Assembly (NCBI GenBank): GCA_963803145.1
Contig: CAWDLW010000008.1
Coordinates: 1-64,000 of the forward strand
Length of the DNA stretch: 64,000 nucleotides
Direction: 5' to 3'
From: Methanotrichaceae archaeon
GTDB taxonomy: Archaea > Halobacteriota > Methanosarcinia > Methanotrichales > Methanotrichaceae
Shown here: positions 2,764-60,154 of the stretch, piece by piece
Numbering within the stretch: the stretch's first letter is position 1
How the letters are laid out: every line of letters begins with the position of its first letter
The notes under the pieces: generated by a model
The model's input: only the letters and a program-made list of their open reading frames with translations
What the model was told of the DNA's origin: nothing
Databases searched by the model: none
Made by a program: the position numbers and the translations under genes

Positions 2764-3039
2764 CCCACATCCCGCAGGTAGGTCATTAAGAATTCTGAAT
2801 TTTCCAGTTTTACAAATTGGGAGTTAGGATTTAATTATAGACGCATTTATGGTTAGAATAAATATAAATAATTAAAATAGAGTCCAAGCATGTCAACACG
2901 TCTTCGGGGTAATTGATGTTATAATTATTAGAAAATATAATTCTAGCTCAAGATTAAGTGATCGCTTCTATGTGATTTTTCAGAAAACCGTTATCAGGAA
3001 AAATGCTAGGTTTTGGAAGTTGCACCTGCGGGATGTGGG
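2764..3039. mobile_element. MITE, 276 bp, non-autonomous; ends resemble IS1634 family
   Basis: Perfect 16-bp TIR CCCACATCCCGCAGGT (2764-2779) / ACCTGCGGGATGTGGG (3024-3039), flanked by ATTAAT at 2758-2763 and 3040-3045; AT-rich interior with no ORF. Family assignment is from recalled end similarity. Confidence 0.8.
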
Positions 3040-3194
3040 ATTAATCGCAAATCCAAGAGGAATAGAGAACGACCTAAGTCGGGACGAAGGGAATCTTTAT
3101 GTGCGGATTTTGATTAGACCATGAATAAGGACATTAAATATCTCGTGCGTATTCTTCTTTTTCCAACAACTCAGTATAGATAAACTACCCACGC

Positions 3195-41717: not shown

Positions 41718-42278
41718 ATGAAGGAAACGCTGGAAGAGATTGGGGCACGTCTTCGAGAGCTGCGGGAGCTGTCGAAGGTTACAGTCGGGGAGATGTCAAA
41801 TTATCTGAAGATACCTGAGGGGACGTATAACTGCTACGAGGAGGGAAAGCTGGACATCCCTGCAAGTGTCCTGATTGAGGCCGCGCGAAGGCTGGATGTC
41901 GATGTAGGACTTCTGCTGACGGGCCAAGAGCCAAAGATGAATATATACACAGTAACTCGGAGTGGCGAAGGGACTGAGGCAGAGCGCAGGAAGCAGTATA
42001 GATACCAGAGCCTCGCGGGGAAGTTCATGCATAAAAAGGCTGAGATCTTCATCGTGACTGTCGAGCCGAGGATTGGCATGGCGGTTGATAAGCCGTCTAT
42101 TTACAGCCATAAAGGGCAGGAATTCGATTACGTCCTGGAAGGAACTATTAAGATACATATCCGAGATCAAGAGGTAGTATTGAACGAGGGAGATTCCATA
42201 TTCTTCGATTCTTCATACGGCCATATAATGGAAGCCCTCGATAATAAACCGGTCAAGATGTTGGCTGTTGTCATGTAG
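41718..42278 (+). CDS. XRE-family HTH + cupin transcription regulator
   Basis: [13 protein letters not shown]; [20 protein letters not shown]. Confidence 0.9.
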
Positions 42279-42294
42279 AAGAAAGGGATATAAA

Positions 42295-44205
42295 ATGTCA
42301 ACATTGCTAAGTAGATTCGTCTCAAGGGTAGATTTCGAATCATACGATGATTTCGAAAACAATTTCAAGATAATTGTACCGGAGAACTTCAATTTCGCCT
42401 ATGATGTTGTGGATGTATATGCAAAAGAACACCCTGAAAAGATCGCACTCGTATGGTGTAATGATAATAATGAAGAGAAAATCCTCAACTTCAAGGAATT
42501 GAAGCTTCTGAGCGATAAAGCTGCAAATCTATTCAAAAAATACGGAATAAAGAAGGGCGACACTGTAATGCTCACCCTGAAGAGCCGATGGGAGTTCTGG
42601 GTATGCATGGTCGGCCTGAACAAAATTGGAGCAATATCAATTCCTTCCACCCACATGCTGAAACAGAAGGATTTTGTCTATCGCATCAAGAAGGCAGACT
42701 TGAAGATGATCGTTTGTATTGCGGGAGACGGGGTGCCGGAGGAGTTTGATGCTGCATATAACCAGCTGGGCAGACCGGCCTTGACCCGCGCCTTAGTTGG
42801 AAGTCCTGATCTGTTGAGAGATGGCTGGATTAACTTCAATGCCGAGCTTGAAGAGATGTCCTCCGATTTCCCGAGGCCTACAGGCGAAGAGGCCACTAAG
42901 AACAGCGATATAATTCTCGCCTACTTCACATCAGGCACGACTGGCTATCCCAAGATGGTAAGGCATGATCAGACCTATCCTCTGGGACATATCCTCACCG
43001 CAAAATACTGGCAGAACGTAGGCGATGACGGCCTGCATTACACCGTAGCAGATACCGGCTGGGCAAAATGCGCCTGGGGAAAGATCTATGGACAATGGAT
43101 CGCAGGATCGGCAGTCTTCACATATGATTACGACAGGTTCGATGCCGGAAGGATGATGGATATGATGGCCAAATACGGGGTCACAACCTTCTGTGCGCCG
43201 CCGACGATCTTTAGATTCATGATCAAAAGCGATATGTCAAAGTATGATTTCTCTACCCTAAAGTATGCTGTGACTGCAGGAGAACCTCTGAATCCGACGG
43301 TCTATGAAAAGTTCCTTGAGACTACGGGCTTAAAGCTGATGGAGGGTTTCGGCCAGACAGAGACCGTCGTCTTCATAGCAAATTATCCCTGGGTCAATCC
43401 CAGGCCTGGATCGATGGGCAGGTCCGCTCCCGGATTCGATATAGTCTTAGTTGGCAAGAACGATAAAGTCTGTGAGGTGGGCGAAGAGGGCGAGATAGTC
43501 ATTAAAACCGACAAAGGAAAGCCCGTCGGCGTATTCACAGATTACCATTTAGATCCCGATAAGACAAAGAATACCTGGCATGATGATTACTATCATACCG
43601 GCGATACAGCATGGAAGGACGAGGATGGTTATTTCTGGTTTGTCGGCCGGACAGACGATATGATAAAGACCTCAGGCTATCGTGTAGGGCCCTTTGAGGT
43701 TGAGAGCGCTCTAATGTCGCATCCCGCTGTTTTGGAGGTAGCCATAACTGGGGTTCCAGATTCTGTAAGGGGGCAGGTAGTCAAGGCAACTGTAGTCCTT
43801 ACCAAGGGCTATACACCCTCAGAGGAGCTGAAGAAGGAGCTTCAGAATCACGTTAAAAGTGTGACTGCCCCATACAAATATCCACGAATTATTGAATTCG
43901 TTGAAGAGCTGCCGAAGACAATCAGCGGAAAAATAAGACGTGTTGAGATCAGAGAGAAAGATAAGCCCTATCCTTTGATCAACGTGAAAGAGTGCAAAGC
44001 ATGCGAGAGATGTATCGTAGATTGTCCTGCGAACGTTCTGAAGCTTAGCAATGAGTTAAACGAGAGGGGCTACCGCTATGCTGTCTACTCCGGGGATGGC
44101 TGCATAGGCTGCGGCGCTTGCTTCTATACATGTCCTGAGCCGCTAGCTATACAGGTCCATATCCCACAGAAGGAGAGAGTCGAAGCTCTGGAGAAGGCGA
44201 GTTGA
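42295..44205 (+). CDS. Medium/branched-chain acyl-CoA synthetase fused to C-terminal 2[4Fe-4S] ferredoxin (VorC-like)
   Basis: [32 protein letters not shown], then [12 protein letters not shown] and [12 protein letters not shown]. Confidence 0.9.
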
Positions 44206-44206
44206 A

Positions 44207-45250
44207 ATGGCTTCCAAGTTAGTTGCAGGAAACAGCGCAGTAATAATCGGAGCAATGTATGCTGGCTGTGATTGCTTCTTCGGCTATCCAATAACCCCGG
44301 CGAGCGAGATATTGCAGGATGCATCCCGCTACTTTCCGCTGGCAGGCAGGAAGTTTGTGCAAGCGGAATCTGAAGAGGCAGCGATAAATATGGTCTATGG
44401 CGCAGCTGGCACAGGCCACAGAGTCCTGGCCGCTTCGTCTGGGCCCGGCATGAGCCTGAAACAGGAAGGCATAACTTACATAGCGGGAGCTGAGCTGCCC
44501 TGTGTTATCGTAGATATTTGCCGTGCTGGTCCAGGTCTCGGAAATATTGGGCCGGAGCAATCGGACTACAATCAGGCATGTAAAGGTGGAGGACATGGCT
44601 GTTATAATAATATCGTTCTAGCTCCGAACAGCGTTCAAGAGATGTGCGACATCACAATGAAAGCGTTTGATCTGGCCTTTAAGTATCGCAATCCGACCGT
44701 AGTCCTTGCAGATGGCGTCTTAGGCCATATGGTCGAGCCCCTCAGGTTCCCGGAGATTGCTGTAGAGCCGACCATTGATACCTCCTGGGCTGTGAGCGGT
44801 AACGCCAGTACCCGCAAGAACCTCATTACATCTATTGCGTTGGACTTCGATGAGCTGGAGGCGCATAACCTCAAGCTCCAAAAAAAGTATGAGGAGATAA
44901 AAAAGAATGAGGTTGCCTATGAGGGCTATAGATTGGACGATGCAGAAGTAGTGCTCGTGTCCTATGGAATCAGCAGCCGCATCGCTCGATCTGCAGTGGA
45001 TGCTGCAAGACGCGAAGGCATCAAGGCTGGCCTCTTCCGGCCAATTACGCTTTTCCCATTCCCGGAGAATGAGATTGAAGCTCTCGCGAATAAAGGCTGC
45101 AAATTCATATCTGTAGAGATGAGCAACGGAATGATGCGGGATGATATCCGATTAGCTGCAGCCTGTGCCCCAGTAGAATTAATAAACCGCTACGGAGGGC
45201 GTCTCGTTCAGATTGACAAGCTTATGGATAAGATAAGGGAGGTGGCCTGA
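44207..45250 (+). CDS. vorB: 2-ketoisovalerate:ferredoxin oxidoreductase, alpha-type subunit
   Basis: [35 protein letters not shown]. Confidence 0.88.
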
Positions 45251-46696
45251 ATGGCGGCCAAAGAAAAGCTTATCGGAGGACCTCGCGGAATTTATGAGGA
45301 GTTTTCCAGGAAAGGTGGGGCAGCGCCCACTGCTACTCATTACTGTCCTGGATGTGGACATGGTGTACTGCATAAGCTTATCGGCGAAGCCATGACTGAT
45401 CTGGGCATACAGGATCGCTGTATAGTCTTAAGCCCAGTGGGCTGTGCGGTGTTCGCATACTATTACTTGGATTGCGGTCATATGCAGTGCGCCCACGGCA
45501 GAGCTCCGGCAATAGCCACAGGCATATCCAGGGCAGAGGATAATGCAATAGTCATGTCCTATCAGGGAGACGGCGATTTGGCATCGATTGGACTTAACGA
45601 AACGATACAAGCTGCCAACAGGGGAGAGAAGCTGGCTGTCTTCTTCATAAATAACACCGTCTACGGTATGACTGGCGGCCAGATGGCGCCTACAACTCTG
45701 ATAGGCGAGGTGACAGCCACAACGCCTGTTGGGCGTAATCCCCAGGACATGGGCTATCCTATCCATATCTGTGAGATTCTAGATACGTTAAAAGCGCCTG
45801 TTTTCATTGAGCGAGTGTCGCTTTCAGACATTGAGCACGTTCGGAAGGCCAGGCGCGCAGTCAGAAAGGCATTAGAAATCCAGAAGGATAAAAGGGGCTA
45901 CGCGTTTGTGGAGTTCCTCTCGCCATGTCCGACTATTCTGAGGATGGATGTTAGAGGTGTCCGGAAGTTCATCAATGAGCAGATGGAAAAGGAGTTCCCG
46001 CTCAAGAAATTTAGAGATAGATCGTCAGAGGCCCAACCAATCGTGAGACAGCAGAGCGATTTCTCTAAGGAATCCCTGGACAAGGTCTTTGGATCTAAAG
46101 AGCATTTATCTGTGGACTTTGCGAACGACCCGGACTTTGAGCTGAAGGGTGTGAAGATTGCCGGCTTCGGCGGTCAGGGAGTGCTCAGCATGGGCCTGGC
46201 TCTAGCGCAGGCAGCTTTTGGGACAGGCAGATATGTCTCATGGTACCCCGACTACGGCCCTGAGCAGCGAGGTGGCACGTCTAACTGCTCTGTCACCATT
46301 TCAGGCCAGCCAATCGGCTCTCCCGTGATTGATCATCCAGACGTGCTTGTGGCATTCAATCGGCCTTCGCTGGATAAGTTTGCCTCAACTGTTAAGAAGG
46401 GTGGTCTGATCCTTTACGATTCATTAGCAGGTGAGTTCAGGCCGCCAGAAGGAATTAGAGCCATATCGGTCCCTGCAACTCAGATTGCGACAGAGAAGGG
46501 AATTCAGCAGGCAGCAAATACTGCCATGTTTGGCGCTCTGATGCAGGCAGGAAATCTGGGGCTGCCGCGTGAGGCATACGGCAACGCCTTTAAGGTGACC
46601 TTTGCTAAGAAGCCCGAGCTTATATCTCTGAACTTGGAGATAATGGAGGCAGGTGCCCAGGCAGTGAAGGTGCTGGAAATGGTTGCCCGCAGATGA
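45251..46696 (+). CDS. vorA: 2-ketoisovalerate:ferredoxin oxidoreductase, fused beta (TPP)/gamma subunit
   Basis: [13 protein letters not shown]...[23 protein letters not shown]. Confidence 0.88.
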
Positions 46697-47068: not shown

Positions 47069-50000
47069 ATGTCAATGAAAGAGGCTTTGAAGGGGGGAGC
47101 TATTACGGTCTTGGTATTGCTGGCCTTGGTTGGGGTCACTTTGGCTCAGCAAGACCTATCCGTGACAAGCATCGCCTCTAAAGATAATGTAAAACCTGGT
47201 GAACAGATAATATATAATATTGGTGTGACGAACAATGGGGTTGGACCAGTTTATGATGTTACTGTGACAGATAAGCTTCCGCCAGAGGCAACCTATGTAT
47301 CAACTACCGCTGAAAAAGTTATAACGACACCTCAAGGCGGAGCACTTCCTACTAATACGCTGGAAGCGATCTTCGATGTAATTCCCGCCGGTCAGACAAA
47401 ATCATTTAATATCACAATTACTGCACCGACGGCAGAAGAGCCTGTGATTCTTTACAATTATGTCCTTGTTAGGGCTAGAAACGTTGATCAGAACATTTTC
47501 AAGGAGACTAAGACTATTGTAATGCCTGACTATAATAAGTTTAGGGCTGTGAGGAGTCTCCAGGATCTGCTTATTAATCAGTCACACCTTCTATTGAGCT
47601 TCGAGGATTTACTGCATATGGTATCTCAGAACAATACTGAACATGTATCGTTCCTTCAGAGCTTCGAGCAATTGCTGAAGACTCAGACCGTTTTGATATC
47701 TGGCTTCCAGAACCTGCTCTATTCACCTGATCAGAGCGGATGGACTAACGCATTCACGAATGAGCAGAAGATCGAATTCCTCATGTGCTATGAGGAGATG
47801 CTCAAGAAAGAAGCCTTCCTCTTCTCCAGCTTCGAGGATATCTTAAAGAAGAACTGGTGCAGTGCGGGCGATATAAACACTAAGAAGGAGTTTCTTGCCA
47901 GCTTTGAAGATCTGCTTCATAAACAAGTGACACTTTACAGCAGCTTTGAGACACTACTGCAGAGGCTAGGATTGAACGATAGCAGTGTGTATACATACGG
48001 CGGTGTTACAAAGACGGGAACCGCATGGAAGGTGCAGTTCCTTGGCAGCTTCGAGGCGCTTCTCAGGCTTCAGTCTGATCTGCTGCTGAGCTTCCAGGAA
48101 CTAATGAATGCCCCCCCATGTGACCCGGGAATTACGATAAATAAGACAGCAATTTGGAGCAAGTGTGATGATTGCAACCAATGGGTAATCTATACAATCA
48201 CAGTCACTAATACGGGCCCCAACAACATTACAGGAGCCAATCTTACCGATTATTACCCGGATGGTGCTCATTTCTCAAAGAAATATAATCCTAACTGGAT
48301 AAATAACGGAGACGGCACTCTGAGTTACAGTATCGGAACTATTGAAGTAAATAGAACCATGGTAGTGAGCCTGAATCTCTTTATGCCTCCTGGTTTGGGT
48401 CTAGGGCCATTTGTGAACAATGTCTGTGTTGATTCAAACGAGCGTGTGAGGGTTTGCAGTTCAGTGAGCATTAGCAGAAATAAGACATGTCCAGGAATTG
48501 TAGTGAACAAGACTGCCATTTGGGGCACGTGCAACAATGGTTTCCAGAATGCAATCTATACAATTAAAGTAGCCAATAAGGGATTATGTAACGCCACCGG
48601 GGTTAGGCTCATCGACACATATCCAGCCGGTGCAGGGTTCTCAGCGGCCGAGAATCCAGACTGGACAGATAATATGAATGGAACACTAACTTACAACCGT
48701 ACAGTTATACCTGTAAATACCAGTATTGCTGTACAATTAGTTCTCAACTTCTCCAATAGTATGGGACTTGGGCCATTCAATAACACAGTTTGTGCCTATA
48801 CAAATGAGTTTCCGAGAGTCTGCAGCTCAGTGAATATTAGAAGAGACAATGTATGTCCAGTTCCGGGAATTCAAGTGACCAAGACAGGTCAGTGGGGCGA
48901 TTGCAAGAATGGAGTCCAGAATGCGACCTATACAATCAAAGTCATCAACACGGGCAACACTACTATAACAGGAGTTAAGCTCCTCGATACATATCCAGCA
49001 GGTGCTACGTTCGACTCTGTACAGAACCCCCTCTGGACGAAGAATGTGAATGGCACATTGACTTACAGCCATGGAGATATAATAGCTCCAAGCAATACTC
49101 TTACTGTACCATTGATTCTCGGCTTCTCCAATAGTATGGGACTCGGGCCATTTGTGAACAAGGTCTGTGCCTATACGAACGAGATCCCTGGAGTTTGCGC
49201 CTTTGGAAACATCAGCAGAGATCAGTTATGCCCAGTTTCGAAGATTGAAGTTACCAAGACAGGTCAGTGGGGCAATTGTAAGAATGGAATCCAGAATGCG
49301 ACCTATACAATCAAAGTCATCAACACGGGCACCACTACCATAACAGGAGTTAAGCTCCTCGATACATATCCAGCAGGTGCTACGTTCGACTCTGTACAGA
49401 ACCCCCTCTGGACGAAGAATGTGAATGGCACATTGACTTACAGCCATGGAGATATAATAGCTCCAAGCAATACTCTTACTGTACCATTGATTCTCGGCTT
49501 CTCCAATAGTATGGGTCTCGGGCCATTTGTGAACAGGGTTTGTGCCTATACGAACGAGATTCCGGGAGTTTGCACCTTTGGAAACATCAGCAGAGATCAG
49601 TTATGCCCAATAATTGAAGTAACAAAGACAGCTGTTTGGAGCGATTGTAAGAATGGAGTCCAGAATGCGACCTATACAATCAAAGTCAGTAATATGGGCT
49701 CTACAACTGTAACAGGAGTTAAGCTCCTCGATACATATCCAGTTGGTGCTATGTTCGATTCTGTACAGAACCCCCTCTGGACGAAGAATGTAAATGACAC
49801 ACTGACTTACAGCCATGGAGATATAATAGCTCCAAGCAACACTCTGACTGTATCACTGATTCTCGGCTTCTCTAATAGTATGGGTCTCGGGCCATTTGTG
49901 AACAGGGTTTGTGCCTATACAAACGAGGTTCCGGGAGTTTGCGCCTTTGGAAACATCAGCAGAGATCAGTTATGCCCAGTTTCGAAGATTGGAGTTACCA

Positions 50001-50743
50001 AGACGGGTCAGTGGGGCGATTGTAAGAATGGAATCCAGAACGCGACCTATACAATCAAAGTCAGTAATACGGGCACCACTACCATAACAGGAGTTAAGCT
50101 CCTCGATACATATCCAGTTGGTGCTACATTCGATTCTGTACAGAACCCCCTCTGGACGAAGAATATAAATGGTACACTGACTTACAGCCATGGAGATATA
50201 ATAGCTCCAAGCAATACTCTTACTGTACCATTGATTCTCGGCTTCTCCAATAGTATGGGACTAGGGCCATTTGTGAACAGGGTTTGTGCCTATACGAACG
50301 AGGTTCCGGGAGTTTGCACCTTTGGAAACATCAGCAGAGATCAGTTATGCCCAGTCTCAGGAATTCAAGTGATTAAGACAGGTCAGTGGGTCCTATGTGA
50401 TAATTATACAGGGTATTGGATCACCGTCAGTAATCATGGCGATAAAGATGCAACCGGGGTAAAGCTCACAGATTATCCTCCAGCTGTTGCGGAGTTCGAT
50501 GGAGTTCAGAACCCTGGCTGGACAAAAAATAACACAGACGGCACGCTAACCTACAATCTATCAGACTTGCGTTCAAAAACGGATAGCTTCCCAGTGCCTT
50601 TGACACTCTTTATAAGCAAGATCTACGGACCTGGGCCTTTTATGAACAAAGTTTGTGTTGATACACATGAGTATGCTAGGAATTGCACTACATATAATCT
50701 CAGCAGGGTTGTTAGTTCCACAGGTGAATGCATAGATGGCTAA
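47069..50743 (+). CDS. Large secreted protein: DUF11-like domain, five SFEDLL helical repeats, seven Cys-containing DUF11-like repeats
   Basis: Signal peptide; YxIxVxNxG...VxLxDxYPxGA motif repeated; SD AAGGAG. Confidence 0.85.
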   Translation: MSMKEALKGGAITVLVLLALVGVTLAQQDLSVTSIASKDNVKPGEQIIYNIGVTNNGVGPVYDVTVTDKLPPEATYVSTTAEKVITTPQGGALPTNTLEAIFDVIPAGQTKSFNITITAPTAEEPVILYNYVLVRARNVDQNIFKETKTIVMPDYNKFRAVRSLQDLLINQSHLLLSFEDLLHMVSQNNTEHVSFLQSFEQLLKTQTVLISGFQNLLYSPDQSGWTNAFTNEQKIEFLMCYEEMLKKEAFLFSSFEDILKKNWCSAGDINTKKEFLASFEDLLHKQVTLYSSFETLLQRLGLNDSSVYTYGGVTKTGTAWKVQFLGSFEALLRLQSDLLLSFQELMNAPPCDPGITINKTAIWSKCDDCNQWVIYTITVTNTGPNNITGANLTDYYPDGAHFSKKYNPNWINNGDGTLSYSIGTIEVNRTMVVSLNLFMPPGLGLGPFVNNVCVDSNERVRVCSSVSISRNKTCPGIVVNKTAIWGTCNNGFQNAIYTIKVANKGLCNATGVRLIDTYPAGAGFSAAENPDWTDNMNGTLTYNRTVIPVNTSIAVQLVLNFSNSMGLGPFNNTVCAYTNEFPRVCSSVNIRRDNVCPVPGIQVTKTGQWGDCKNGVQNATYTIKVINTGNTTITGVKLLDTYPAGATFDSVQNPLWTKNVNGTLTYSHGDIIAPSNTLTVPLILGFSNSMGLGPFVNKVCAYTNEIPGVCAFGNISRDQLCPVSKIEVTKTGQWGNCKNGIQNATYTIKVINTGTTTITGVKLLDTYPAGATFDSVQNPLWTKNVNGTLTYSHGDIIAPSNTLTVPLILGFSNSMGLGPFVNRVCAYTNEIPGVCTFGNISRDQLCPIIEVTKTAVWSDCKNGVQNATYTIKVSNMGSTTVTGVKLLDTYPVGAMFDSVQNPLWTKNVNDTLTYSHGDIIAPSNTLTVSLILGFSNSMGLGPFVNRVCAYTNEVPGVCAFGNISRDQLCPVSKIGVTKTGQWGDCKNGIQNATYTIKVSNTGTTTITGVKLLDTYPVGATFDSVQNPLWTKNINGTLTYSHGDIIAPSNTLTVPLILGFSNSMGLGPFVNRVCAYTNEVPGVCTFGNISRDQLCPVSGIQVIKTGQWVLCDNYTGYWITVSNHGDKDATGVKLTDYPPAVAEFDGVQNPGWTKNNTDGTLTYNLSDLRSKTDSFPVPLTLFISKIYGPGPFMNKVCVDTHEYARNCTTYNLSRVVSSTGECIDG
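48866..50365 (+). repeat. Four near-identical in-frame tandem units of 369-375 bp
   Basis: AAGAC anchor recurs at 48881, 49256, 49625, 50000 and 50375, with near-identical DNA between. Confidence 0.9.
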
Positions 50744-50772
50744 ATCCATATAGCTATAGACGATAAAAGGTT

Positions 50773-50800
50773 AGGTTATCACTCTTCGGAGTGGTAACTT
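50773..50800 (+). terminator. Hairpin with C(UUCG)G loop
   Basis: AGGTTATCACTC-TTCG-GAGTGGTAACTT followed by a T-rich tract. Confidence 0.55.
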
Positions 50801-51292
50801 ATATTTTATTATTAACTAGTATTCGAGACTGCCAAGACACAAACAAAGCCCGAACGCCAGAGAGATGTTAATATGGTATCCAAAAGAGACAATGGTAAAT
50901 TGATTTCCCTTATCTTAAATTCATTGTTCATAAATGGCATTCTCACTATCTCTCAATCATATTTCGCTCTATTTATCGAAAGGTGTGAACTAGTTCTGAA
51001 ATTGCTCTTTCATTCTTTTGGGAATATACTCGTTAGGAATATACTGGTTGATTTGTCCGTTTTGATTCGTTACAGGTATCTTAGAATCGATGATCGCGAT
51101 ATTATGCCAAATTCTATATCAGATTACAATTTAGATCGCTCCATAACGTATGTATTAGCTATCTTAAATCCTCCTCAAAATGGATTGAATAACTCTTCAA
51201 AATCATATTTATATCAAGTTAAAAGTTTGAGGAATTTGCATGAACAATTATTACGGCCATCGCCTTTAGAAGCAATCATAGAAAGCCATTAT

Positions 51293-52771
51293 ATGCTGTA
51301 TAAAGCATTTTGTGATGTTATAAAATTCACCTTGATATTAGGGATATCAACAGCTGTATTCAGCCAGAATATGATCATTCAAGATGCGAGTGCTGCCTCA
51401 GTCGATTCTTCTTTTATGGACAGTCTTGGGGATCTGCTGAACGATGAGGCAAATCTTTTGTCCAGTTTCGACTACCTCATTCATAATACTACGACAACTA
51501 CTGAGGAGAGGGTAGGATTCATTGATAGCTTCGATGATCTGCTCAGGAGACAGGCTACGCTTTTCAGCGGGTTCGATGATCTTTTAAAGACGCACTGGAA
51601 CAGCATGGATATCGAAGAGCAAGAAAAATTTCTAAATAACTTCAAGGATCTCCTGAAGAGGGAATCAACCCTTTATTACAAATTAGAGAGTTTAAATGAA
51701 GAAAGCTGGCAGGATATATCTTCTGAAAAGCGTGTAGAATTGCTTGCAAGCTTTGGAGATTTACTGAAAAAGCAGGCCGATCTATTGATAGCTTATGAGG
51801 AGCTGTTGAAAAATAAAGTTGGCGGGCTAACAATAGCTAATTCTGTAAATAAGCCAATAATTGATCAAGGAGAGAAGGTAACTTATACTTATGTCATAAA
51901 GAACTGGTATAAAAAGGCTGTAAAGGATGTAGTTATCATTGATGATAAACTTGGGACAGTTGCAGATAAAGTCTCCCTGAACCCTGGAGAATCAAAGTCC
52001 TTTACAAAAAGTGTTAATATTTATGATGATGCCTGTAATACTGCTACCGTTTTAGGAAAAGATCCCGACGGCAATATCACTGCGGATGACAGCGGTTTAG
52101 TTTATGTGCGCGTGAGAGGTGGAGGACTATCTGAACCTGCACAATACGGCCAATATTGCGATTCTCAGAAGATTGTAGGAACCGGCACCGTTGATGTAAA
52201 TACGGCTATAGTTGATAAAGATATAGCTCTGGAATATCGCAACAACATGGCAGGAGATGGCGATATTGAGTATAATTCAGAACATGTCCTATCCGAGAAT
52301 GCCAGCAAGCTTCAGAGACCAGTTAATGGTAAAACTGTGCCCTTAAATTTCTTTGAAGAAAACAAATTATCCTACGCTGGATCCCATCCTTTAGCTGGCC
52401 AAAAGCAGATCAACTCCAGGGAGTTTGATGGAGGAATCGGGGCAAACGTAGAAGAGAATTTCCTAGCGAACCAGATAGACAAAGATCAAACAACCTTCTT
52501 TGCATCGACTGATCCTGCAGGCCATATTTCAAATTATACTCAGGCCAAAAAAATAGATAGGATCACTCCAGTGTATTTAATCGGCACGAATATTTCAAGC
52601 CAATTCAACGGAACCTGGGGAACTGGAACTACTTGGTATAATGTACTGAAGAAGAAAATATTTGATCGCCAGAGTTTCACAGGCAACTTCGAAGCTCAAA
52701 AGCTGATAGAGATTCATGAAAGCCCCAGACCTGAGCCTCAGGCTACGCAATGTGAAGGCATCGACTGCTAA
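51293..52771 (+). CDS. Secreted protein: four SFEDLL helical repeats, one DUF11-like domain, beta-rich C-terminal domain
   Basis: Signal-like segment after ATG 51293 (track start 50873 looks like a spurious AT-rich extension); GEKVTYTYVIKN motif; ends CEGIDC. Confidence 0.75.
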   Translation: MLYKAFCDVIKFTLILGISTAVFSQNMIIQDASAASVDSSFMDSLGDLLNDEANLLSSFDYLIHNTTTTTEERVGFIDSFDDLLRRQATLFSGFDDLLKTHWNSMDIEEQEKFLNNFKDLLKRESTLYYKLESLNEESWQDISSEKRVELLASFGDLLKKQADLLIAYEELLKNKVGGLTIANSVNKPIIDQGEKVTYTYVIKNWYKKAVKDVVIIDDKLGTVADKVSLNPGESKSFTKSVNIYDDACNTATVLGKDPDGNITADDSGLVYVRVRGGGLSEPAQYGQYCDSQKIVGTGTVDVNTAIVDKDIALEYRNNMAGDGDIEYNSEHVLSENASKLQRPVNGKTVPLNFFEENKLSYAGSHPLAGQKQINSREFDGGIGANVEENFLANQIDKDQTTFFASTDPAGHISNYTQAKKIDRITPVYLIGTNISSQFNGTWGTGTTWYNVLKKKIFDRQSFTGNFEAQKLIEIHESPRPEPQATQCEGIDC

Positions 52772-52825: not shown

Positions 52826-54856
52826 TTATAAAGAGAGTGGCGCCGATTTTCGTGGCCTTAAGCCCTCTGTGGTGGGCTTGGTCCTCGCTAGCGCGAGAGC
52901 AATAATGCTGGCGAATGCCTCCAATAATCTTCTCTGCTCCGGTCGCAAGGGGTGGCCTGATTGCCCTAGGCGCACACCCATGACTCCGAGTGGTATCTCT
53001 TCAGCCTTAAGGGGTAGATAGAACATAGATGCAGATGAGAGGGTTTCTGTTCCGCATCCAGCAGGCTTGCCGTGCTGAAACACCCAGGTAGCCACACCAA
53101 GTTTGCGCTCATCGAATATCAGAGTTTCACCCATCTGGGCTCGTGGGATAAGCTGTCCAGATTCATTGGGGAGCAGAATCAATACCTCGCACTGAAATGC
53201 TCCGGCAATCTCTTTGGTAGCATAACGCAGAAGCTCCTCCAAACCTTCAACCGCCATAAGGTCACGGCTGAATTCATAAAGGGACGAAACAAAACGCTCC
53301 CTTTCACGGGCATTCTCTCCCTGCCATCTGACCATATCTGCCAAAATGCTTGTCACCATTCCTACAACAATGAAAACCAAGAATACAGGCAGATAGCGAA
53401 TATCCCCAAGTGTCATACCGAGCCTCGGCGGCACGAAGAAGAAGTCGAGCGCTATTACTGCCACAAGGGACGTCACCAGACCGGAGCTTCTTCCCCAGGT
53501 CATGGCGCTGTATACTACTGGCAGAAGCAGTATCATGGCAACGTTGATTAAGCCCATATAGTCATGCAATATCCAGCAAAAACAAACTGTGACAGCCAGG
53601 CTCATAAGGCCGCCATAGAACGGTTTTAAGTTCTTTACTCCTTTTTCTTCTTCCTCAGATCCAGGTGAAACAATCGGTTTTTCTATCTTCTGGTCTGCTT
53701 CAGTACCGCCTATAACGAGGACGTGAATTGGGCCGCTTCTGCTGATGACTTCATTAATAACTGATCCTCTGAACCATCTGTTCCAGAAACTTTTTCGCGG
53801 CAGACCAGCGATAATGAGTGTTACGTTATGCTCTCTTGCGAAAGAGATTATTTCATCCGATATTTTGCGTCCGCTTAGAACCTCGACCTTGGCTCCCAGC
53901 TCCTCTGCAAGCATGGTGTTTCGAGCTAGCTGGTCGCGGGCAGCCTCTGTTGGAGGTCTTTCCTGGGGAGATTCGACGTAGACTGCAAACCATTCGGCAT
54001 CCAGATCTGCAGCCATTCTCTGCCCTATTCTCACTAGTCGCTCGGATAATGGGCTGGCGCTGACGCACACCATCAGTGTAGATCCTGCTGGCCAAGGTCC
54101 CAGGATGCCTTGCATCTCCATATAGGAGCGCATATCCTCGTCAACTTTATGGGCCGCGTGCCTTAGCGCCAACTCCCTCAAGCCGAGAAGATTGCCTTTG
54201 CGGAAGAAGCGGCGCATGGCAAGCTCAGCCTGTGCCGGGACATACACCTTGCCCTCCTTAAATCTTTGAATCAATTCTTCGGGAGGCAGATCTACAACTT
54301 CGATCTCGTCTGCAAGCTCCAGCACTTTGTCCGGAAGAGTTTCGCTAACATGGACACCTGTGATCTGATAGACGATATCATTGAGGCTCTCAATGTGCTG
54401 GATGTTCAGAGTAGTGTAAACGCTGATGCCTGCATCGAGAAGCTCTTCGACATCCTGATACCTTTTGGTATGCCGCAGTCCAGCGGCATTTGTATGTGCC
54501 AGCTCGTCTACCAATGCTATCGTCGGATGGCGTGCGAGGACTGCATCAAGATCCATCTCATCGAGCACTATGCCGCCACGATCTATGTGAAGACGAGGAA
54601 TTGTTTCCAGGCCGTTCAGCAGAGCCATGGTTTCAGGCCGACCGTGGGTCTCAGCTATGGCTAAAACAACATCAACACAGGCTTTTTTTAGTGACTGGGC
54701 CTCTTCAAGCATCTGATAAGTTTTGCCGACGCCTGCTGCCGCGCCCAGAAATATTTTGAGATGGCCTCGGCTGCTGCTGGCCTCCTGCTCTTCCTGCTCT
54801 ATATGCTGTATTCTCCGAAGCAGCGCGTCAGGGTCGGGTTGGCACTTATCTATCAA
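52826..54856 (-). CDS. kdpD: KdpD-like sensor lacking the histidine-kinase domains
   Basis: LKIFLGAAAGVGKTY, VDELAHTN, TTLNIQHIESLND, Usp domain, 4 TM (DFFFVPP), GAF, then stop; no H-box or ATP lid. Confidence 0.9.
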   Translation of the reverse strand: MIDKCQPDPDALLRRIQHIEQEEQEASSSRGHLKIFLGAAAGVGKTYQMLEEAQSLKKACVDVVLAIAETHGRPETMALLNGLETIPRLHIDRGGIVLDEMDLDAVLARHPTIALVDELAHTNAAGLRHTKRYQDVEELLDAGISVYTTLNIQHIESLNDIVYQITGVHVSETLPDKVLELADEIEVVDLPPEELIQRFKEGKVYVPAQAELAMRRFFRKGNLLGLRELALRHAAHKVDEDMRSYMEMQGILGPWPAGSTLMVCVSASPLSERLVRIGQRMAADLDAEWFAVYVESPQERPPTEAARDQLARNTMLAEELGAKVEVLSGRKISDEIISFAREHNVTLIIAGLPRKSFWNRWFRGSVINEVISRSGPIHVLVIGGTEADQKIEKPIVSPGSEEEEKGVKNLKPFYGGLMSLAVTVCFCWILHDYMGLINVAMILLLPVVYSAMTWGRSSGLVTSLVAVIALDFFFVPPRLGMTLGDIRYLPVFLVFIVVGMVTSILADMVRWQGENARERERFVSSLYEFSRDLMAVEGLEELLRYATKEIAGAFQCEVLILLPNESGQLIPRAQMGETLIFDERKLGVATWVFQHGKPAGCGTETLSSASMFYLPLKAEEIPLGVMGVRLGQSGHPLRPEQRRLLEAFASIIALALARTKPTTEGLRPRKSAPLSL

Positions 54857-55131: not shown

Positions 55132-55731
55132 TCATCTTTTGCTTTTAGCCAGATCATCCAGCGCAATATTGAGTTTGAGCACATTCACTCTATCTTGACC
55201 AAATATGCCGAATTGAGGATGCTCAATATGTCGGTCTACCAATGCTTGCACTTCTGATTCCGGTAGCCCTCTCGCTTTAGCAACGCGTGATATCTGAATC
55301 TGTGCACCCTGTGGACTGATGTCCGGATCAAGGCCACTACCAGAGGCGAGCACTAGATCTGCGGGCACAGATGCATCTGCAGATAGATTATCTTCGCTCC
55401 TAACTTTTTGAACTCTCTCGCGTACCTCCTCCATGAGCTTGGCACTGGTTGGCCCCAGGTTGCTGCCGCCGGAGTTGCTGCCGTTGTAATCTACAGCAGA
55501 AGGCCGCCCGTGGAAGTAGCCTGGGCTCGTGAAGTTCTGACCAAATAGTTCAGATCCAACTACTGTGCCATTCACATAAATCAGGCTTCCATGGGCCTGA
55601 TAGGGCATTGTTGTATCGGCCACCAAGCTTACGAAAAATGGATAGGCCAGGCTGAGCAAACAAACCATCGCAAACAGCGATACACAGGTCTTCGTCTCCT
55701 TGATAATCTCTCTTTTATCCATTTTTCTCAC
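55132..55731 (-). CDS. kdpC: Kdp-type ATPase subunit C
   Basis: [42 protein letters not shown]. Confidence 0.95.
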
Positions 55732-57764
55732 TCCAGATGCAGCATTACTACCAGTATATCGATCAGCTTGATGCCAATGAAAGGAATAATCAATCCGCCA
55801 AGGCCGTAAACTACAAGGTTATAGCGCAGCAATGATTCAGTTGTAGCCGGCCTATAGCTGACTCCTCTCAAGGCCAGAGGTATAAGTGCAGGTATGATAA
55901 GGGCGTTGAAGATTACTGCCGATAGAACTGCGCTTGTGGGCGTTGATAGGCCCATGATGTTCAATGCTTCCAGCTGAGGATATGTGGCTGCGAACATTGC
56001 AGGCAATATGGCGAAGTATTTTGAGACATCGTTTGCCACGCTGAAGGTTGTAAGGGCGCCTCTGGTCATCAAAAGCTGCTTTCCGATCTCCACTATGTCC
56101 AGGAGCTTTGCGGGATTGGAATCAAGGTCAACCATGTTTGCGGCCTCTCTGGCTGCCTGAGTGCCGGCGTTCATAGCCACTGCCAGATCTGCCTGGGCAA
56201 GAGCAGGGGCATCATTGGTTCCATCTCCTATCATCGCCACCATGTGGCCATCCTTCTGGTATCTTCGAATGACATCCAGCTTGACTTCGGGTCGGGCCTG
56301 TGCCAGGAAGTCATCAATGCCCGCCTCGGCAGCTATAGCTGCAGCTGTTACTGGGTTATCGCCGGTAATCATGACGAAGCGTATACCCAGCTTGCGCATA
56401 TTGTTTAGTCGCTCTTTTATGCCCTCTTTTATTATATCCTTTAATCGAATGGCGCCCAGCATTTTTGGGCCAACGGCCACGACCAGCGGTGTTCCGCCAT
56501 CCCTGGATATTCTGTCTACTGCAGCTTTAATATCCTCTGGAGTACTCCCACCTTTTAATTTCACATAATTATACATTGAATCGGCGGCTCCTTTTCTGAT
56601 CTCCCGACCATCCATGTCTATCCCGCTCATGCGCGTCACTGCGCTGAAGGGTATGAATGTTGAATTCTCAGGAGGTCGAATATCCCTTCCCCGAACACCT
56701 AGAACCTGCTTACACAGATCCACGATGCTTCTTCCCTCAGGGGTATCATCAGCCAGAGAGGAGAGCATTGATGCATCTGCCAACTCTTCATTGGTTACTC
56801 CCTGTGCGGGGATAAACTCTGTTGCCATTCGGTTTCCGAGGGTGATGGTGCCAGTCTTATCCATCAATACCAGATCCACATTTCCTGAAGCCTCTACACC
56901 TCTTCCTGAGAGGGCAAGGACATTATTCTGAAGAAGCCTTTCCATGCCGGCTATTCCTATTGCAGGCAAGAGGCCGCCAATTGTAGTTGGAATTAGGCAG
57001 ACCAGAAGCGATATCAGCACAACTAAGCCTAGGCTCACGCCTATATAGTTAGAAAAGGGCACCATAGTAATAACCACAATAAGAAATATTGCAGTCATTC
57101 CTATGAGAAGTATCTCCAGGGCCCGCTCATTAGGCGTCTTCTGGCGTTTGGCATTCTCAACCATTGATATCATCTGGTCCAGGAAGGTCTCGCCTGGATT
57201 TGCAGTGATATAGATCTTGATCTGCCCTGAGATGACGCGGGTTCCGCCTGTAACCCCACATAAGGTGCCGGTTGGCTCACGAACCACAGGAGCCGACTCA
57301 CCTGTTATAGCTGACTCATCCACAAGTGCAGTTCCTTCTGCGATCTCGCCATCTCCGGGTATTATCTCGCCATCCCTCACTAAGACCAGGTCGCCCTTAC
57401 GAAGTCCCGTTGCAAAGATCTGCTCTATTCTTCCATCGTTCAGCAGTTTGTTCGCCATGGCTTCGCTTCTGGCTTGACGCAAGCTTTCGGCCTGGGCGCG
57501 GCCTCTGCCTTCAGCAAGGCCCTCAGAGAAATTGGCGAAGAGCACTGTGAACCAGAGCCAGATGCTGATCTGTATGTCGAACTTGAAGTTTCTGCCTGTG
57601 AATAAATCGCCTATGGCTATTAGAGTGGTCAGTGCAGCGCCGAGCTCCACCACGAACATAACTACGTTTCGTCGCTGGATGATGGGGTTCAGCTTCAGGA
57701 AGGAGTCTTTGACCGCCTGCTTTACTATATCTGATTGCCAGAGATTTGTAGTCTTGCCTCGCAT
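55728..57764 (-). CDS. kdpB: Kdp-type P-type ATPase subunit B
   Basis: [40 protein letters not shown]. Confidence 0.97.
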
Positions 57765-57777
57765 ATGTCATCCCCCT

Positions 57778-59478
57778 TTAGAACGTCCTTCCTGCCGTCA
57801 TCAGCAGATGCTCCAGAATTGGTCCGATCGTCGCTACAGGGAAGAATGCGAGAGCGCTCAATATGAAGACCACGAAGACCACTGTGATTATGAATAGCGG
57901 GCTTGCAACAGGCAGCGTGGCTGCGCTGACTGCTATCTGTCCCTTGCGAGCCATGGACCCGGCAATGGCAATGCCCACGAGTAGGGTGGAATACCTTCCT
58001 AGAAGCATACAGGGCGGGGTCATCAAACATATATATGTACTCAGGACGTTCAAACCTCCCATATATGAACCGTTGTTAATCGATGCCGAAGTGAAAGCAA
58101 AAAGCATCTCCGTTAGCCCGTGGGGGCCTGAGTTGCCTAGAGTTGCAAGACCTGCCACTGATATAATGGCAATGGCAGTAGTAACCAGCGATGAGAAAGA
58201 TGAAAATAGGAATGAAGCTCCGGCCAATATGATTTCACGTAGCTCGAGCTTCTTGCCTATAAGTTCTGGCGTCCTTCCTGTCATGAGCCCTGCCACAAAC
58301 ATGGCTACAATGAAGTAATGCATCATGGCTAGCGGCCCTTCTCCGATGCATCCGAATATCGGCGCTCCAATCACTATGAAAAAGATAATTTGCAATATGC
58401 TGAGGGGCATTAAACTGTCATGCTGAGAGATTGTTGAGCCATTCGCAGGAGCCATTCCAACTAAAATATACATTATATGCTCGAACATGGAAAAGCGCAT
58501 CTCTTTGCCCTCCAGGTTTACGCCGCCCTGAACTCCTAGCTTCTCTAGCAATGGGTTCGGCTGATTCTCAGCATAGAATGGAAGAGGCATGCAAAGCAGG
58601 AACATCACTATCATAACAGAGAAGAGCGCAATTGTTGTATCACGGCTGCGAGACAACTTTCCTATCATGACCACTATTGAAGCTGGCACGAACAATATGT
58701 AGCCCATGGTAAGCCAGCTGTTGAAAGGTGTAGGGTTTTCAAATGGATGTGCCATGCTATTGCCAAAATAGTTAGACCCATCTTCGCAAAACAGCTGATA
58801 TACTATTACCGAAGCAGCAGGCCCTCCCGGTATAAGCTGCACTCCTCCTTCGAGCGTGTGAGCTACAGTATAAGGATCGAAGTTCTGTACAACGCCTTGT
58901 GAGATGAGTGGAAACACTAAGATTAACGAGAGTGGTATCCAGACATATAGGATAACCCTTATCAGATCAACCCAGAAGTTGCCTATAGTTGGGGAGTGCC
59001 TGCGGCTGAAGGATCGTGCCAAGACTATAATAGCCGAAAAACCAACCGCAGGACTGATGTACTCCTGAACATGCGTCCCAAGCATCTGCGACATATAGCT
59101 GAATTCATGCTCACCAGTGTAAGCAATCCAATTGGTATTCGTGATATAGGAGAATGCTATATTCACAGCTAAATCCCATCTAATTGCGCCAAGGCCTTGA
59201 GGATTGAGGGGAAGCACGCCCTGTAGCGATAAAATCACAAATGTAAATATAACACCGATAAACTCAAAGCCCATCAGCGTCCCAATATATTTCTTCCATG
59301 TCATCTCACTCTTCTCATCGATGCCGCATATCTTGTGGATACCTTTCTCGACGGGCCGTAAGATTGGCGAAAGAAGAGTGCGCTCTCCACTGAAGACCTT
59401 GGCCAGGTACCCTCCAAAAGGCACCGCCAATATTATAGTGGCTATAATAATAAAAGCATATGCCAATTCCTGTAACAT
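57778..59478 (-). CDS. kdpA: Kdp-type ATPase subunit A with divergent selectivity filter
   Basis: TNTNW, GNFWVDL, HPFENPT, EGKEMRF, GRTPE, NNGS, GPILEHL; SD GGGAGG. Confidence 0.93.
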   Translation of the reverse strand: MLQELAYAFIIIATIILAVPFGGYLAKVFSGERTLLSPILRPVEKGIHKICGIDEKSEMTWKKYIGTLMGFEFIGVIFTFVILSLQGVLPLNPQGLGAIRWDLAVNIAFSYITNTNWIAYTGEHEFSYMSQMLGTHVQEYISPAVGFSAIIVLARSFSRRHSPTIGNFWVDLIRVILYVWIPLSLILVFPLISQGVVQNFDPYTVAHTLEGGVQLIPGGPAASVIVYQLFCEDGSNYFGNSMAHPFENPTPFNSWLTMGYILFVPASIVVMIGKLSRSRDTTIALFSVMIVMFLLCMPLPFYAENQPNPLLEKLGVQGGVNLEGKEMRFSMFEHIMYILVGMAPANGSTISQHDSLMPLSILQIIFFIVIGAPIFGCIGEGPLAMMHYFIVAMFVAGLMTGRTPELIGKKLELREIILAGASFLFSSFSSLVTTAIAIISVAGLATLGNSGPHGLTEMLFAFTSASINNGSYMGGLNVLSTYICLMTPPCMLLGRYSTLLVGIAIAGSMARKGQIAVSAATLPVASPLFIITVVFVVFILSALAFFPVATIGPILEHLLMTAGRTF

Positions 59479-59624: not shown

Positions 59625-59789
59625 TCAAGATGCTATCCCTCCTCCGAAGAAAATTGCCACTATCGTCCACCATACAATAAAGAAAGATACAATTATAAAT
59701 ATAGCTCTTATTATTTCTTTACCTTCTGCTTCCGAGATTTCTCGCAGTTCTGCGATAATTCTCGCGTCTTCCTCACTCGAACTAGGCAT
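59625..59789 (-). CDS. 54-aa single-TM protein at the kdpF position (not in ORF track)
   Basis: MPSSSEEDARIIAELREISEAEGKEIIRAIFIIVSFFIVWWTIVAIFFGGGIAS; strong SD GGAGTGAGG. Confidence 0.7.
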   Translation of the reverse strand: MPSSSEEDARIIAELREISEAEGKEIIRAIFIIVSFFIVWWTIVAIFFGGGIAS

Positions 59790-60045: not shown

Positions 60046-60154
60046 TTAAGAATATCCCTTAAACTTTAAGAACACTTAAGAATATCCCTTAAACTTTAAG
60101 AACACTTAAGAATATCCCTTAAACTTTAAGAACACTTAAGAATATCCCTTAAAC
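60046..60154. repeat. 30-bp perfect tandem repeat, about 3.6 copies
   Basis: Unit TTAAGAATATCCCTTAAACTTTAAGAACAC at 60046, 60076, 60106, partial at 60136. Confidence 0.95.

Follow-up and report, generated by a model that had tools for sequence, protein, structure and literature searches.

We report here a Kdp-type ion pump with a rewritten pore subunit, encoded in a 64,000-nucleotide stretch of DNA (the window, positions 1 to 64,000 of contig CAWDLW010000008.1) from a Methanotrichaceae archaeon (assembly GCA_963803145.1). Its kdpA gene is intact, and the altered filter is conserved in a clade of KdpA proteins that is under purifying selection, co-occurs with canonical pumps and has dedicated partner proteins. 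We lean, with modest confidence, towards a working pump that most likely still takes up K+, with an affinity, selectivity margin, pH dependence or regulation that sets it apart from the canonical pump found in its lineage. The clade is rare, conserved and apparently undescribed; no description of it was found in full-text literature searches.

The original prediction rested on the four pore loops and the tunnel segment of KdpA. All the motifs it quoted are present in the translation, and we re-derived their coordinates (Table 1). Using E. coli KdpA numbering for substitutions throughout, we aligned the protein with HMMER to E. coli KdpA of PDB 5mrw (E 8e-119) and with MAFFT to E. coli K-12 KdpA from NC_000913. 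Residues 8–558 of 566 align, and KdpA is full length, as had been stated. Both alignments give Q116I; G229C, T230E, N231D, G233S and G234N; S343A, C344N, A346S and V347T; E370A, V371P, G375C and S378E in the D3M2 loop; and A470Y in loop 4. The predicted replacements of Q116 by isoleucine and of E370 by alanine and the new glutamate near S378 are therefore borne out, and so is the change of TNGGG to EDGSN, in which the critical G232 is not lost. N112, G232, G345, N466, N467, G468, S469 and R493 are retained. Further differences from E. coli are N137D, T340M, A342P (where the canonical majority has T) and V387F (canonical majority A).

Part of this divergence is ordinary KdpA variation. Homologues came from a search of 5.8 billion proteins, which supplied graded relatives, and from a search of 50%-identity representatives, which supplied the wider family; together with the second kdpA of the window's genome they form an alignment of 238 rows of 500–650 amino acids (aa). 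The rewritten loop 2 and D3M2 loop occur in 43 rows, namely the window, the second kdpA of the same genome and 41 database clusters, and the remaining 195 rows are canonical (TNTNWQ / G[TS]NGGGFF / GE[VI].FGG / NNGSA). Canonical rows carry G229 in 187 cases, T or S at 230 in 171, N231 in 180 and E370 in 146, the window's residues there being C-E-D and A370. Q stands at position 116 in 185 of the 195, and I in 11 of the 13 rows of the window's own subtype (subtype A, described below). In loop 3, the residue seen most often in canonical rows is N at 344 (59 rows) and S at 346 (80 rows), and A343 is found in 23 rows; A343, N344, S346, T347 and the variable position 465 lie within ordinary KdpA variation. 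The loop-3 differences from E. coli and most of those in loop 4 are thus normal for the family, and for these the comparison in the prediction makes too much of their novelty.

In a FastTree tree of 97 rows, rooted at the midpoint only, the 43 rows make up one side of a branch that has Shimodaira–Hasegawa-like support of 100 and a stem length of 0.38 substitutions per site, and the variant clade is nested beside canonical Methanothrix-type KdpA. Taking out all five motif segments together with the remaining diagnostic columns left support at 100, here in an IQ-TREE "quick" tree of 46 rows. The alignment and tree proposed as a check on the prediction therefore place the EDG-type filter in a single monophyletic clade, with or without the motif columns. 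Defining a diagnostic column as one whose residue is shared by 90% or more of the clade rows and present in at most 5% of the 195 canonical rows, we found 13: N137D, G216, T230E, N231D, P296, T340M, P342, E370A, V371P, G375C, F387, T398 and S420. G229C/A is likewise clade-wide. D231, A370, P371 and C375 occur in 43/43 clade rows and E230 in 41/43; among the canonical rows D231 occurs in two, E230, A370 and P371 in about 1% each, and C375 in none. The motif states of the clade are fixed among members that share as little as 49% identity. N112, G232, G345, N467 and G468 are invariant in all 43 rows, S469 is invariant or nearly so, N466 is kept in 41, and position 493 is R in 40 and K in three.

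Three subtypes can be recognized. Subtype A, that of the window, reads TNT[NQ]W[IT] / CEDG.N[YF]F / GAPIFGCIGEG / SINNGSYM, and support for its monophyly is poor (44 and 76). Subtype B ([AC]EDG.AWS / GCIGTG) has support of 98 and subtype C (TNTEWQ / CEDGGGFF / GCWGTG) of 99–100. All three share G229C/A, T230E, N231D, N137D, E370A, V371P, G375C, T340M and P342. Q116I/T, G234N and S378E are specific to subtype A (13/13 rows), and Y470 occurs in all 13 of its rows and in two of subtype B. Unlike subtype A, subtype C keeps Q116 and the GGG stretch but carries N114E, and subtype B shows EDGxAWS and, in part, TNSNYQ. Neither B nor C has E378 or the 54-aa peptide described below, the WGEG exceptions being one subtype-C cluster and a C-like copy in genome G072. 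Of the three, the subtype of the window is the most derived.

The prediction also held that the changes are concentrated at ion-contact sites, and here the support is partial. Of the columns at least 80% conserved in canonical rows, 5/24 are replaced in the pore segments against 4/95 outside (Fisher p 0.016), yet the enrichment weakens at stricter cut-offs, to 4/21 against 3/74 at 85% (p 0.04) and 2/17 against 2/50 at 90% (p 0.26). Two of the changes counted as outside, Q222I and I225F, sit a few residues ahead of pore loop 2. Because the segments were taken from the motifs of the prediction itself, the test is post hoc, and the concentration at the pore is real but moderate.

Ratios of nonsynonymous to synonymous substitution rates (dN/dS; Nei–Gojobori method, with dS above 1 and near saturation in many pairs) are 0.037–0.128 for subtype-A kdpA (seven genomes, 21 pairs), 0.064–0.127 for canonical kdpA of the same family (eight genomes, 28 pairs) and 0.090–0.164 for subtype C (10 pairs); the closest pairs (dS 0.10–0.34) give 0.04–0.11. 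Purifying selection on subtype-A kdpA matches that on canonical kdpA. A subfamily, rather than decay, is what had been proposed, and a monophyletic clade, fixed motif states, dN/dS of 0.04–0.13 and intact KdpB, KdpC and KdpD-like sensor agree with it; the substitutions are neither unique to this genome nor accompanied by relaxed dN/dS. That the gene is a decaying pseudogene, or an artefact of alignment or assembly, is scarcely credible to us and, as far as sequence can show, is refuted by close relatives in 7/105 genomes of the order and in eight metagenome loci and by dN/dS of about 0.1. The window gene is, moreover, an uninterrupted frame of 566 codons with a ribosome-binding site, and two methods agree on its alignment. 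Only a sister paralogue points the other way: the subtype-C kdpA on contig C12 of the same genome (L113 3350–3450) is frameshifted near codon 30 relative to the intact copy of genome G002, through either an error in sequencing or a true, recent lesion.

Identity to E. coli KdpA is 49% for canonical Methanotrichaceae proteins and 37% for that of the window, whereas identity to E. coli KdpB is 59–62% for the partners of variant KdpA and 62–63% for those of canonical KdpA. The divergence is specific to KdpA, the clade having probably arisen from canonical KdpA through a burst of change confined to that subunit. After the burst, the new states are strictly fixed across deep divergence, a pattern typical of a functional shift and not of drift. 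The long KdpA-specific stem, the retention of the paralogues alongside canonical copies and the small peptide owned by subtype A argue in the same direction. They make it improbable that the variant works just as canonical KdpFABC does, its substitutions being neutral, compensated changes that accumulated by drift after duplication and left ion handling essentially as it was. Such functional equivalence would, on the other hand, accord with the ordinary variation in loops 3 and 4 and with the neutrality of position 370 in many KdpA proteins, about 50% of organisms according to the portion of PMC12629597 that cites Huang 2017; E230 or E378 could also stand in for the charge of E370.

KdpB is intact, as had been predicted: TGES, DKTGT, CLIPTT and ANDVSKYF (D583/K586) are kept, and the protein scores 868 bits against E. 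coli KdpB. The equivalents of D307, S162, F232, P264, T265, D583, K586 and N624 are retained in six subtype-A and five subtype-C partners, and the window's KdpB also keeps T75. Compared with eight canonical partners and E. coli KdpB, the KdpB proteins of these 11 variant operons differ at 20 otherwise invariant columns, of which five (A82S, L183I, L228M, D300N and L512M) are common to A and C partners. In the comparison of the window with canonical Methanotrichaceae operons, the KdpB partners are 73–76% identical. L228M is found in 11/11 variant partners, against L in all eight canonical Methanotrichaceae partners and in E. coli. This residue lines the proximal binding site beside D583, and L228R abolishes transport in E. 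coli, as described in sections of PMC8385062. The window's KdpB differs from that of E. coli at both L228M and A82S.

A KdpA match was found in 35/105 genomes of the order. Subtype A (79–89% identity) is present in seven, G000 (the window's genome), G001, G002, G009, G010 (two copies), G011 and G072, and G071 adds a fragment; subtype C, with motifs checked, is present in G000, G002, G010, G011 and G072. A canonical copy stands beside the variant in G009, G010 and G072. Tandem arrangements, in which a variant kdp operon has a canonical or a second variant one beside it, are seen in G002, in G010 (canonical kdpABC, subtype-C kdpABC, kdpD-like) and in G072 (C-like kdpABC, peptide with subtype-A kdpABC, kdpD-like). 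G011 has variant KdpAs only, and neither TrkH nor Kup was found in it by the queries used; its value as a point for a K+ role is weak because the genome is 87% complete.

In the window's genome, the family search returned only two variant kdpA genes, the second being the subtype-C gene on contig C12. We rejected the resulting suggestion that this genome has no canonical kdpA. Contig C12 (L113 1–2691) opens with the final 48 nt of a kdpA, 91% identical to the canonical gene of G010, followed by an intact kdpB, 96% identical to the canonical-partner KdpB of G010, and kdpC. This remnant indicates a third, canonical kdp operon that was cut by the assembly and is not absent. Contig C2 of G002 starts within the same kdpB.

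Further afield, a G003 copy (50% identity) that scored as a possible subtype C has canonical motifs. In the same genome (L125 5023–7012, contig C5) a kdpB lies beside a canonical kdpA in three overlapping frames, probably a broken gene or an assembly error, and a Syntrophorhabdaceae kdpA match (L133; G106 C41 12398–14086) contains one in-frame TAG. Among the matches listed in a search of genome contigs with generic KdpA patterns, at least 80 loci, only L003 (50%, in G107) looked like a clade member by identity; it corresponds to the same contig range as a motif-verified subtype-C copy, and the motif check among the 80 was limited to this locus. An exact-pattern scan of metagenome contigs for GAPIFGCIG gave 18 loci, of which 14 have a long KdpA frame (eight subtype A, six subtype B), two are fragmented and in two none was detected. 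The clade may extend to bacteria, since two of the subtype-B loci have upstream an open frame that runs to about 900 aa and is 43% identical to the KdpD-like protein of the window, the archaeal ones being about 680 aa. One subtype-B protein carries the label "Chloroflexota bacterium"; a search with it of 401 Chloroflexota genomes, one of which (G451) is unpublished and makes no difference to the outcome, returned 101 KdpA matches, none above 43% identity, and no clade member was found among them.

On the minus strand of the window, a 57-codon open reading frame (ORF) is followed by kdpA, kdpB, kdpC and, after a gap of 275 nt, the KdpD-like gene. kdpA adjoins kdpB and kdpC, both above their cut-offs, which for the KdpA, KdpB and KdpC profiles are the curated NCBIfam values. 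Residues 6–558 of the window's KdpA cover positions 8–560 of the 563 of the TIGR00680 model, and PF03814 is also assigned to it. As judged from these assignments, the window codes for a complete Kdp-type ATPase, made up of KdpA, KdpB and KdpC together with a small membrane peptide and a KdpD-like sensor that lacks the kinase domain.

The 57-codon ORF (59798–59625) probably starts at the ATG at 59789, giving a peptide of 54 aa with one transmembrane helix that ends GGG(I/W)AS, after an acidic N-terminal helix. By tblastn the peptide is present at 14/14 subtype-A loci and at 0/22 other kdp loci; within the order it occurs in 8/105 genomes, in nine copies, each 80–151 nt upstream of a subtype-A kdpA. 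A Pfam scan of the ORF, the only small upstream ORF scanned, gave no match even at E 10, KdpF included, and a protein atlas search with the peptide gave matches of 0.85 or less, to unnamed clusters only. Prediction of a peptide–KdpA complex lent weak support, with an interaction score from aligned errors (ipSAE) of 0.59, against 0.00 for the best of three controls; at least 97% of contacts recur between runs, and the predicted local distance difference test score (pLDDT) of the peptide is at least 73. The mark used was reached by 58/80 solved complexes and 2/110 mismatched pairs, with seven of those 80 and both passing mismatches at 0.60 or under, a calibration that is only rough here, where own alignments were used. 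As a strict companion of subtype-A kdpA, the peptide is a candidate for an extra or KdpF-replacing subunit, and may be a new accessory subunit.

The KdpD-like protein scores 588.9 bits against the KdpD model PRK10490, under the cut-off of 1123, and matches positions 5–647 of 895. A Pfam scan of it detected no HisKA or HATPase domain, and there is no kdpE adjacent to its gene. Each kdp cluster ends with a KdpD-type sensor, and in the Methanotrichaceae clusters fetched this is a KdpD homologue without the histidine-kinase domain, with kdpE not adjacent. Together with the unusual pore, such a kinase-less protein leaves room for a complex that does not transport and acts as a sensor or regulator. 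We consider this very improbable: all the catalytic motifs and ion-site residues of KdpB are kept, purifying selection on kdpA is comparable to that on canonical kdpA, and the canonical operons of the family carry the same kinase-less gene, which is therefore not special to the variant.

How these differences could act may be judged against E. coli KdpFABC (PDB 5mrw, 6hra, 7nnl), with which the window shares the kdpA-kdpB-kdpC order, protein length, fold-level alignment, filter glycines and asparagines and R493, as well as the catalytic, tunnel-gate (F232) and binding-site residues of KdpB. It differs in the 54-aa peptide upstream, where no KdpF match was obtained, and in the kinase-less KdpD-like protein with kdpE not adjacent. 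In E. coli the high-affinity S3 site is formed by carbonyls of N112, T113, T230, S343, C344, N466 and N467, as given in part of 10.1101/2025.03.04.641403. The passages of PMC12629597 on KdpA mutants place E370 at the tunnel entrance and report that E370Q/H raises Km from about 0.02 to 0.5–0.8 mM (about 20–30 fold) without loss of Vmax, that Q116E is wild-type-like and Q116R lowers affinity electrostatically, and that G232D lowers affinity and gives coupled transport of Rb+ and NH4+, ions being selected by the filter while KdpB is promiscuous. In the mutants Q116R, G232D and E370Q/H/K the same places (mouth, loop 2 and vestibule) set affinity and selectivity, with KdpB coupling persisting (PMC12629597). 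Unlike these mutants, the window's KdpA keeps G232, has a hydrophobic and not a basic residue at 116, and pairs the loss of E370 with carboxylates at 230, 231, 137 and 378. Canonical Methanotrichaceae KdpA (G010, G056, G074) shares with it the host lineage, operon layout and kinase-less KdpD-like sensor; it differs in its motifs (TNTNWQ / GTNGGGFF / GEVIFGGVG), is 46–48% identical, and the 54-aa peptide was not found upstream of it.

From these comparisons we infer how the ion may travel, which ion it may be and in which direction the kinetics may have changed. The ion would enter through the KdpA filter, pass by the vestibule into the intersubunit tunnel and be pumped in by KdpB; since the backbone filter (N112, G232, G345, G468, N466/N467) and the KdpB binding site are kept, this path would be unchanged. 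The electrostatics of the membrane core, on the other hand, would be rebuilt. E370, the sole acidic vestibule residue of canonical KdpA, is gone, and new carboxylates would lie at the base of or behind pore loop 2 (E230, D231) and on D1M2 (D137) in all subtypes, with subtype A adding E378 on the D3M2 loop and subtype C adding E114. In the window's KdpA the filter mouth also lacks Q116, and the outer glycines G233 and G234 are replaced. The ion is probably still K+, because of the KdpD-type sensor, the tandem canonical operons and G011 with its variant pumps only.

Several points weigh against a re-tuned K+ pump of this kind. T230E introduces a carboxylate at a position whose carbonyl contributes to the S3 K+ site, and G229C, G233S and G234N take away three of the four glycines around G232. 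Since G232D by itself allows Rb+ and NH4+ transport in E. coli, in the mutant data of PMC12629597, a broadened or shifted specificity is plausible. Three or four added buried acidic residues are unusual for a K+-selective SKT-type filter, and the upkeep of as many as three or four kdp operons by a single energy-limited methanogen argues for non-redundancy. A look-up of sequencing runs listed no RNA data for the gene, a blank that counts neither for nor against any reading. An AlphaFold2 model of KdpA, built from a 32-row clade alignment, has a mean pLDDT of 62.6 and a predicted template modelling score of 0.71, with pLDDT below 50 at 230–249 and 341–380, that is, in the filter and the loop. 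In these regions the model is unreliable and offers no usable side-chain geometry for the conjectured relocation of charge (a swap of E230 or E378 for E370, or a D137–D231 pair).

The main rival to the re-tuned K+ pump is a changed ion: a filter that admits NH4+, Rb+/Cs+, Na+, H+ or a divalent cation, instead of or besides K+, with promiscuous KdpB pumping what it receives. We hold this to be possible, if rather unlikely. Clade-specific changes lie at or beside the S3/S4 part of loop 2 and in the vestibule loop, the membrane core nets 1–3 more acidic residues, every variant partner examined carries L228M at the proximal site, and variant and canonical pumps are kept together in G009, G010 and G072. 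Yet every backbone filter position typical of K+ selection is retained, and the unaltered hydrophobic F232 constriction and D583/K586 site speak against divalent cations. A K+-related role fits the coupled KdpD-type sensors and tandem canonical kdp operons at least as well as a new ion does, and in a Pfam scan of the genes around the window's kdp operon none points to another ion or substrate. More tentatively still, and from sequence alone, the EDG clade might be a Kdp-type pump family with shifted specificity (for NH4+, another monovalent ion, or K+ where the canonical filter fails), in which the core charge would have moved from E370 to loop 2 and subtype A would be aided by the 54-aa membrane subunit.

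Upstream of the operon, the 30-bp repeat array lies about 250 nt from the small ORF that heads it. The same region of the same-genus genome G002 (L114) gives repeated blastn matches to it; the array seems conserved and may be a regulator-binding array. A different conserved frame of 57 codons (MRISPGSI...IPSTFVSGQRTR) is found about 95 nt upstream of kdpA at L115 (about 2950–3140), L122, L116 and L124; it occurs in canonical and subtype-C operons, is absent from subtypes A and B, and could be a leader peptide or an RNA element. Upstream of kdp in L113, L116 and L083, no RNA family was detected with Rfam at E up to 0.1. On the other side, two big neighbouring genes (47069–52771) for DUF11/DUF7507 repeat proteins of 1224 and 632 aa, likely at the cell surface, are convergent with the kdpD-like gene. 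At 42268–46696 lie a gene for an AMP-binding enzyme with a fused 4Fe-4S dicluster domain and, after it, two genes for 2-oxoacid:ferredoxin oxidoreductase subunits.

Table 1. Features of the kdp region, in window coordinates.
Feature	Coordinates	Strand	Remarks
kdpA, variant clade subtype A	57778..59478	-	566 aa, P0001; TIGR00680 503.5 bits, cut-off 387.7
Pore loop 1, TNTNWI	59125..59142	-	P0001 residues 113-118; Q116I at filter mouth
Pore loop 2, CEDGSN	58771..58788	-	within LFCEDGSNYF (229-238); G229C, T230E, N231D, G233S, G234N; G232 kept
Pore loop 3, APANGST	58432..58452	-	residues 343-349; G345 kept; only the preceding M340/P342 clade-specific
D3M2 intramembrane loop/vestibule segment, IGAPIFGCIGEG	58336..58371	-	residues 370-381; E370A, V371P, G375C, S378E
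Pore loop 4, SINNGSY	58063..58083	-	residues 466-472; N466, N467, G468, S469 kept; A470Y
kdpB, P-type ATPase subunit	55728..57764	-	678 aa, P0002; TIGR01497 1001.7 bits, cut-off 527.9
kdpC	55132..55731	-	199 aa, P0003; NF001454 223.6 bits, cut-off 178
KdpD-like sensor, no histidine-kinase domain	52826..54856	-	676 aa, P0004; Pfam KdpD, Usp, DUF4118, GAF_3
54-aa single-pass membrane peptide	59625..59789	-	acidic N-terminal helix; conserved with subtype-A kdpA (tblastn)
30-bp perfect tandem repeat	60046..60154	.	3.6 copies, 100% matches; upstream region of kdp operon

KdpFABC is the textbook example of a P-type pump fed by a channel-like filter, and has perhaps the highest ligand specificity of the P-type ATPases, in the wording of a part of PMC10654040. 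What is known of the determinants of its affinity and selectivity comes from a small number of laboratory mutants of Q116, G232 and E370; the clade changes these regions together, in a variant that is retained beside the canonical pump with its KdpB machinery kept. What this work adds is the explanation of the truncated canonical copy by assembly, the confinement of divergence to KdpA, the accompanying KdpB changes L228M and A82S, and the 54-aa peptide of subtype A. It also raises the question of why acetate-limited Methanotrichaceae keep up to three or four ATP-driven pumps. If its specificity has indeed shifted, the EDG clade would be the first P1A ATPase that is not a strict K+ pump. Paralogues from the same organism could show how charge near S3/S4 and in the vestibule controls ion choice and affinity, and whether P1A ATPases pump anything besides K+.

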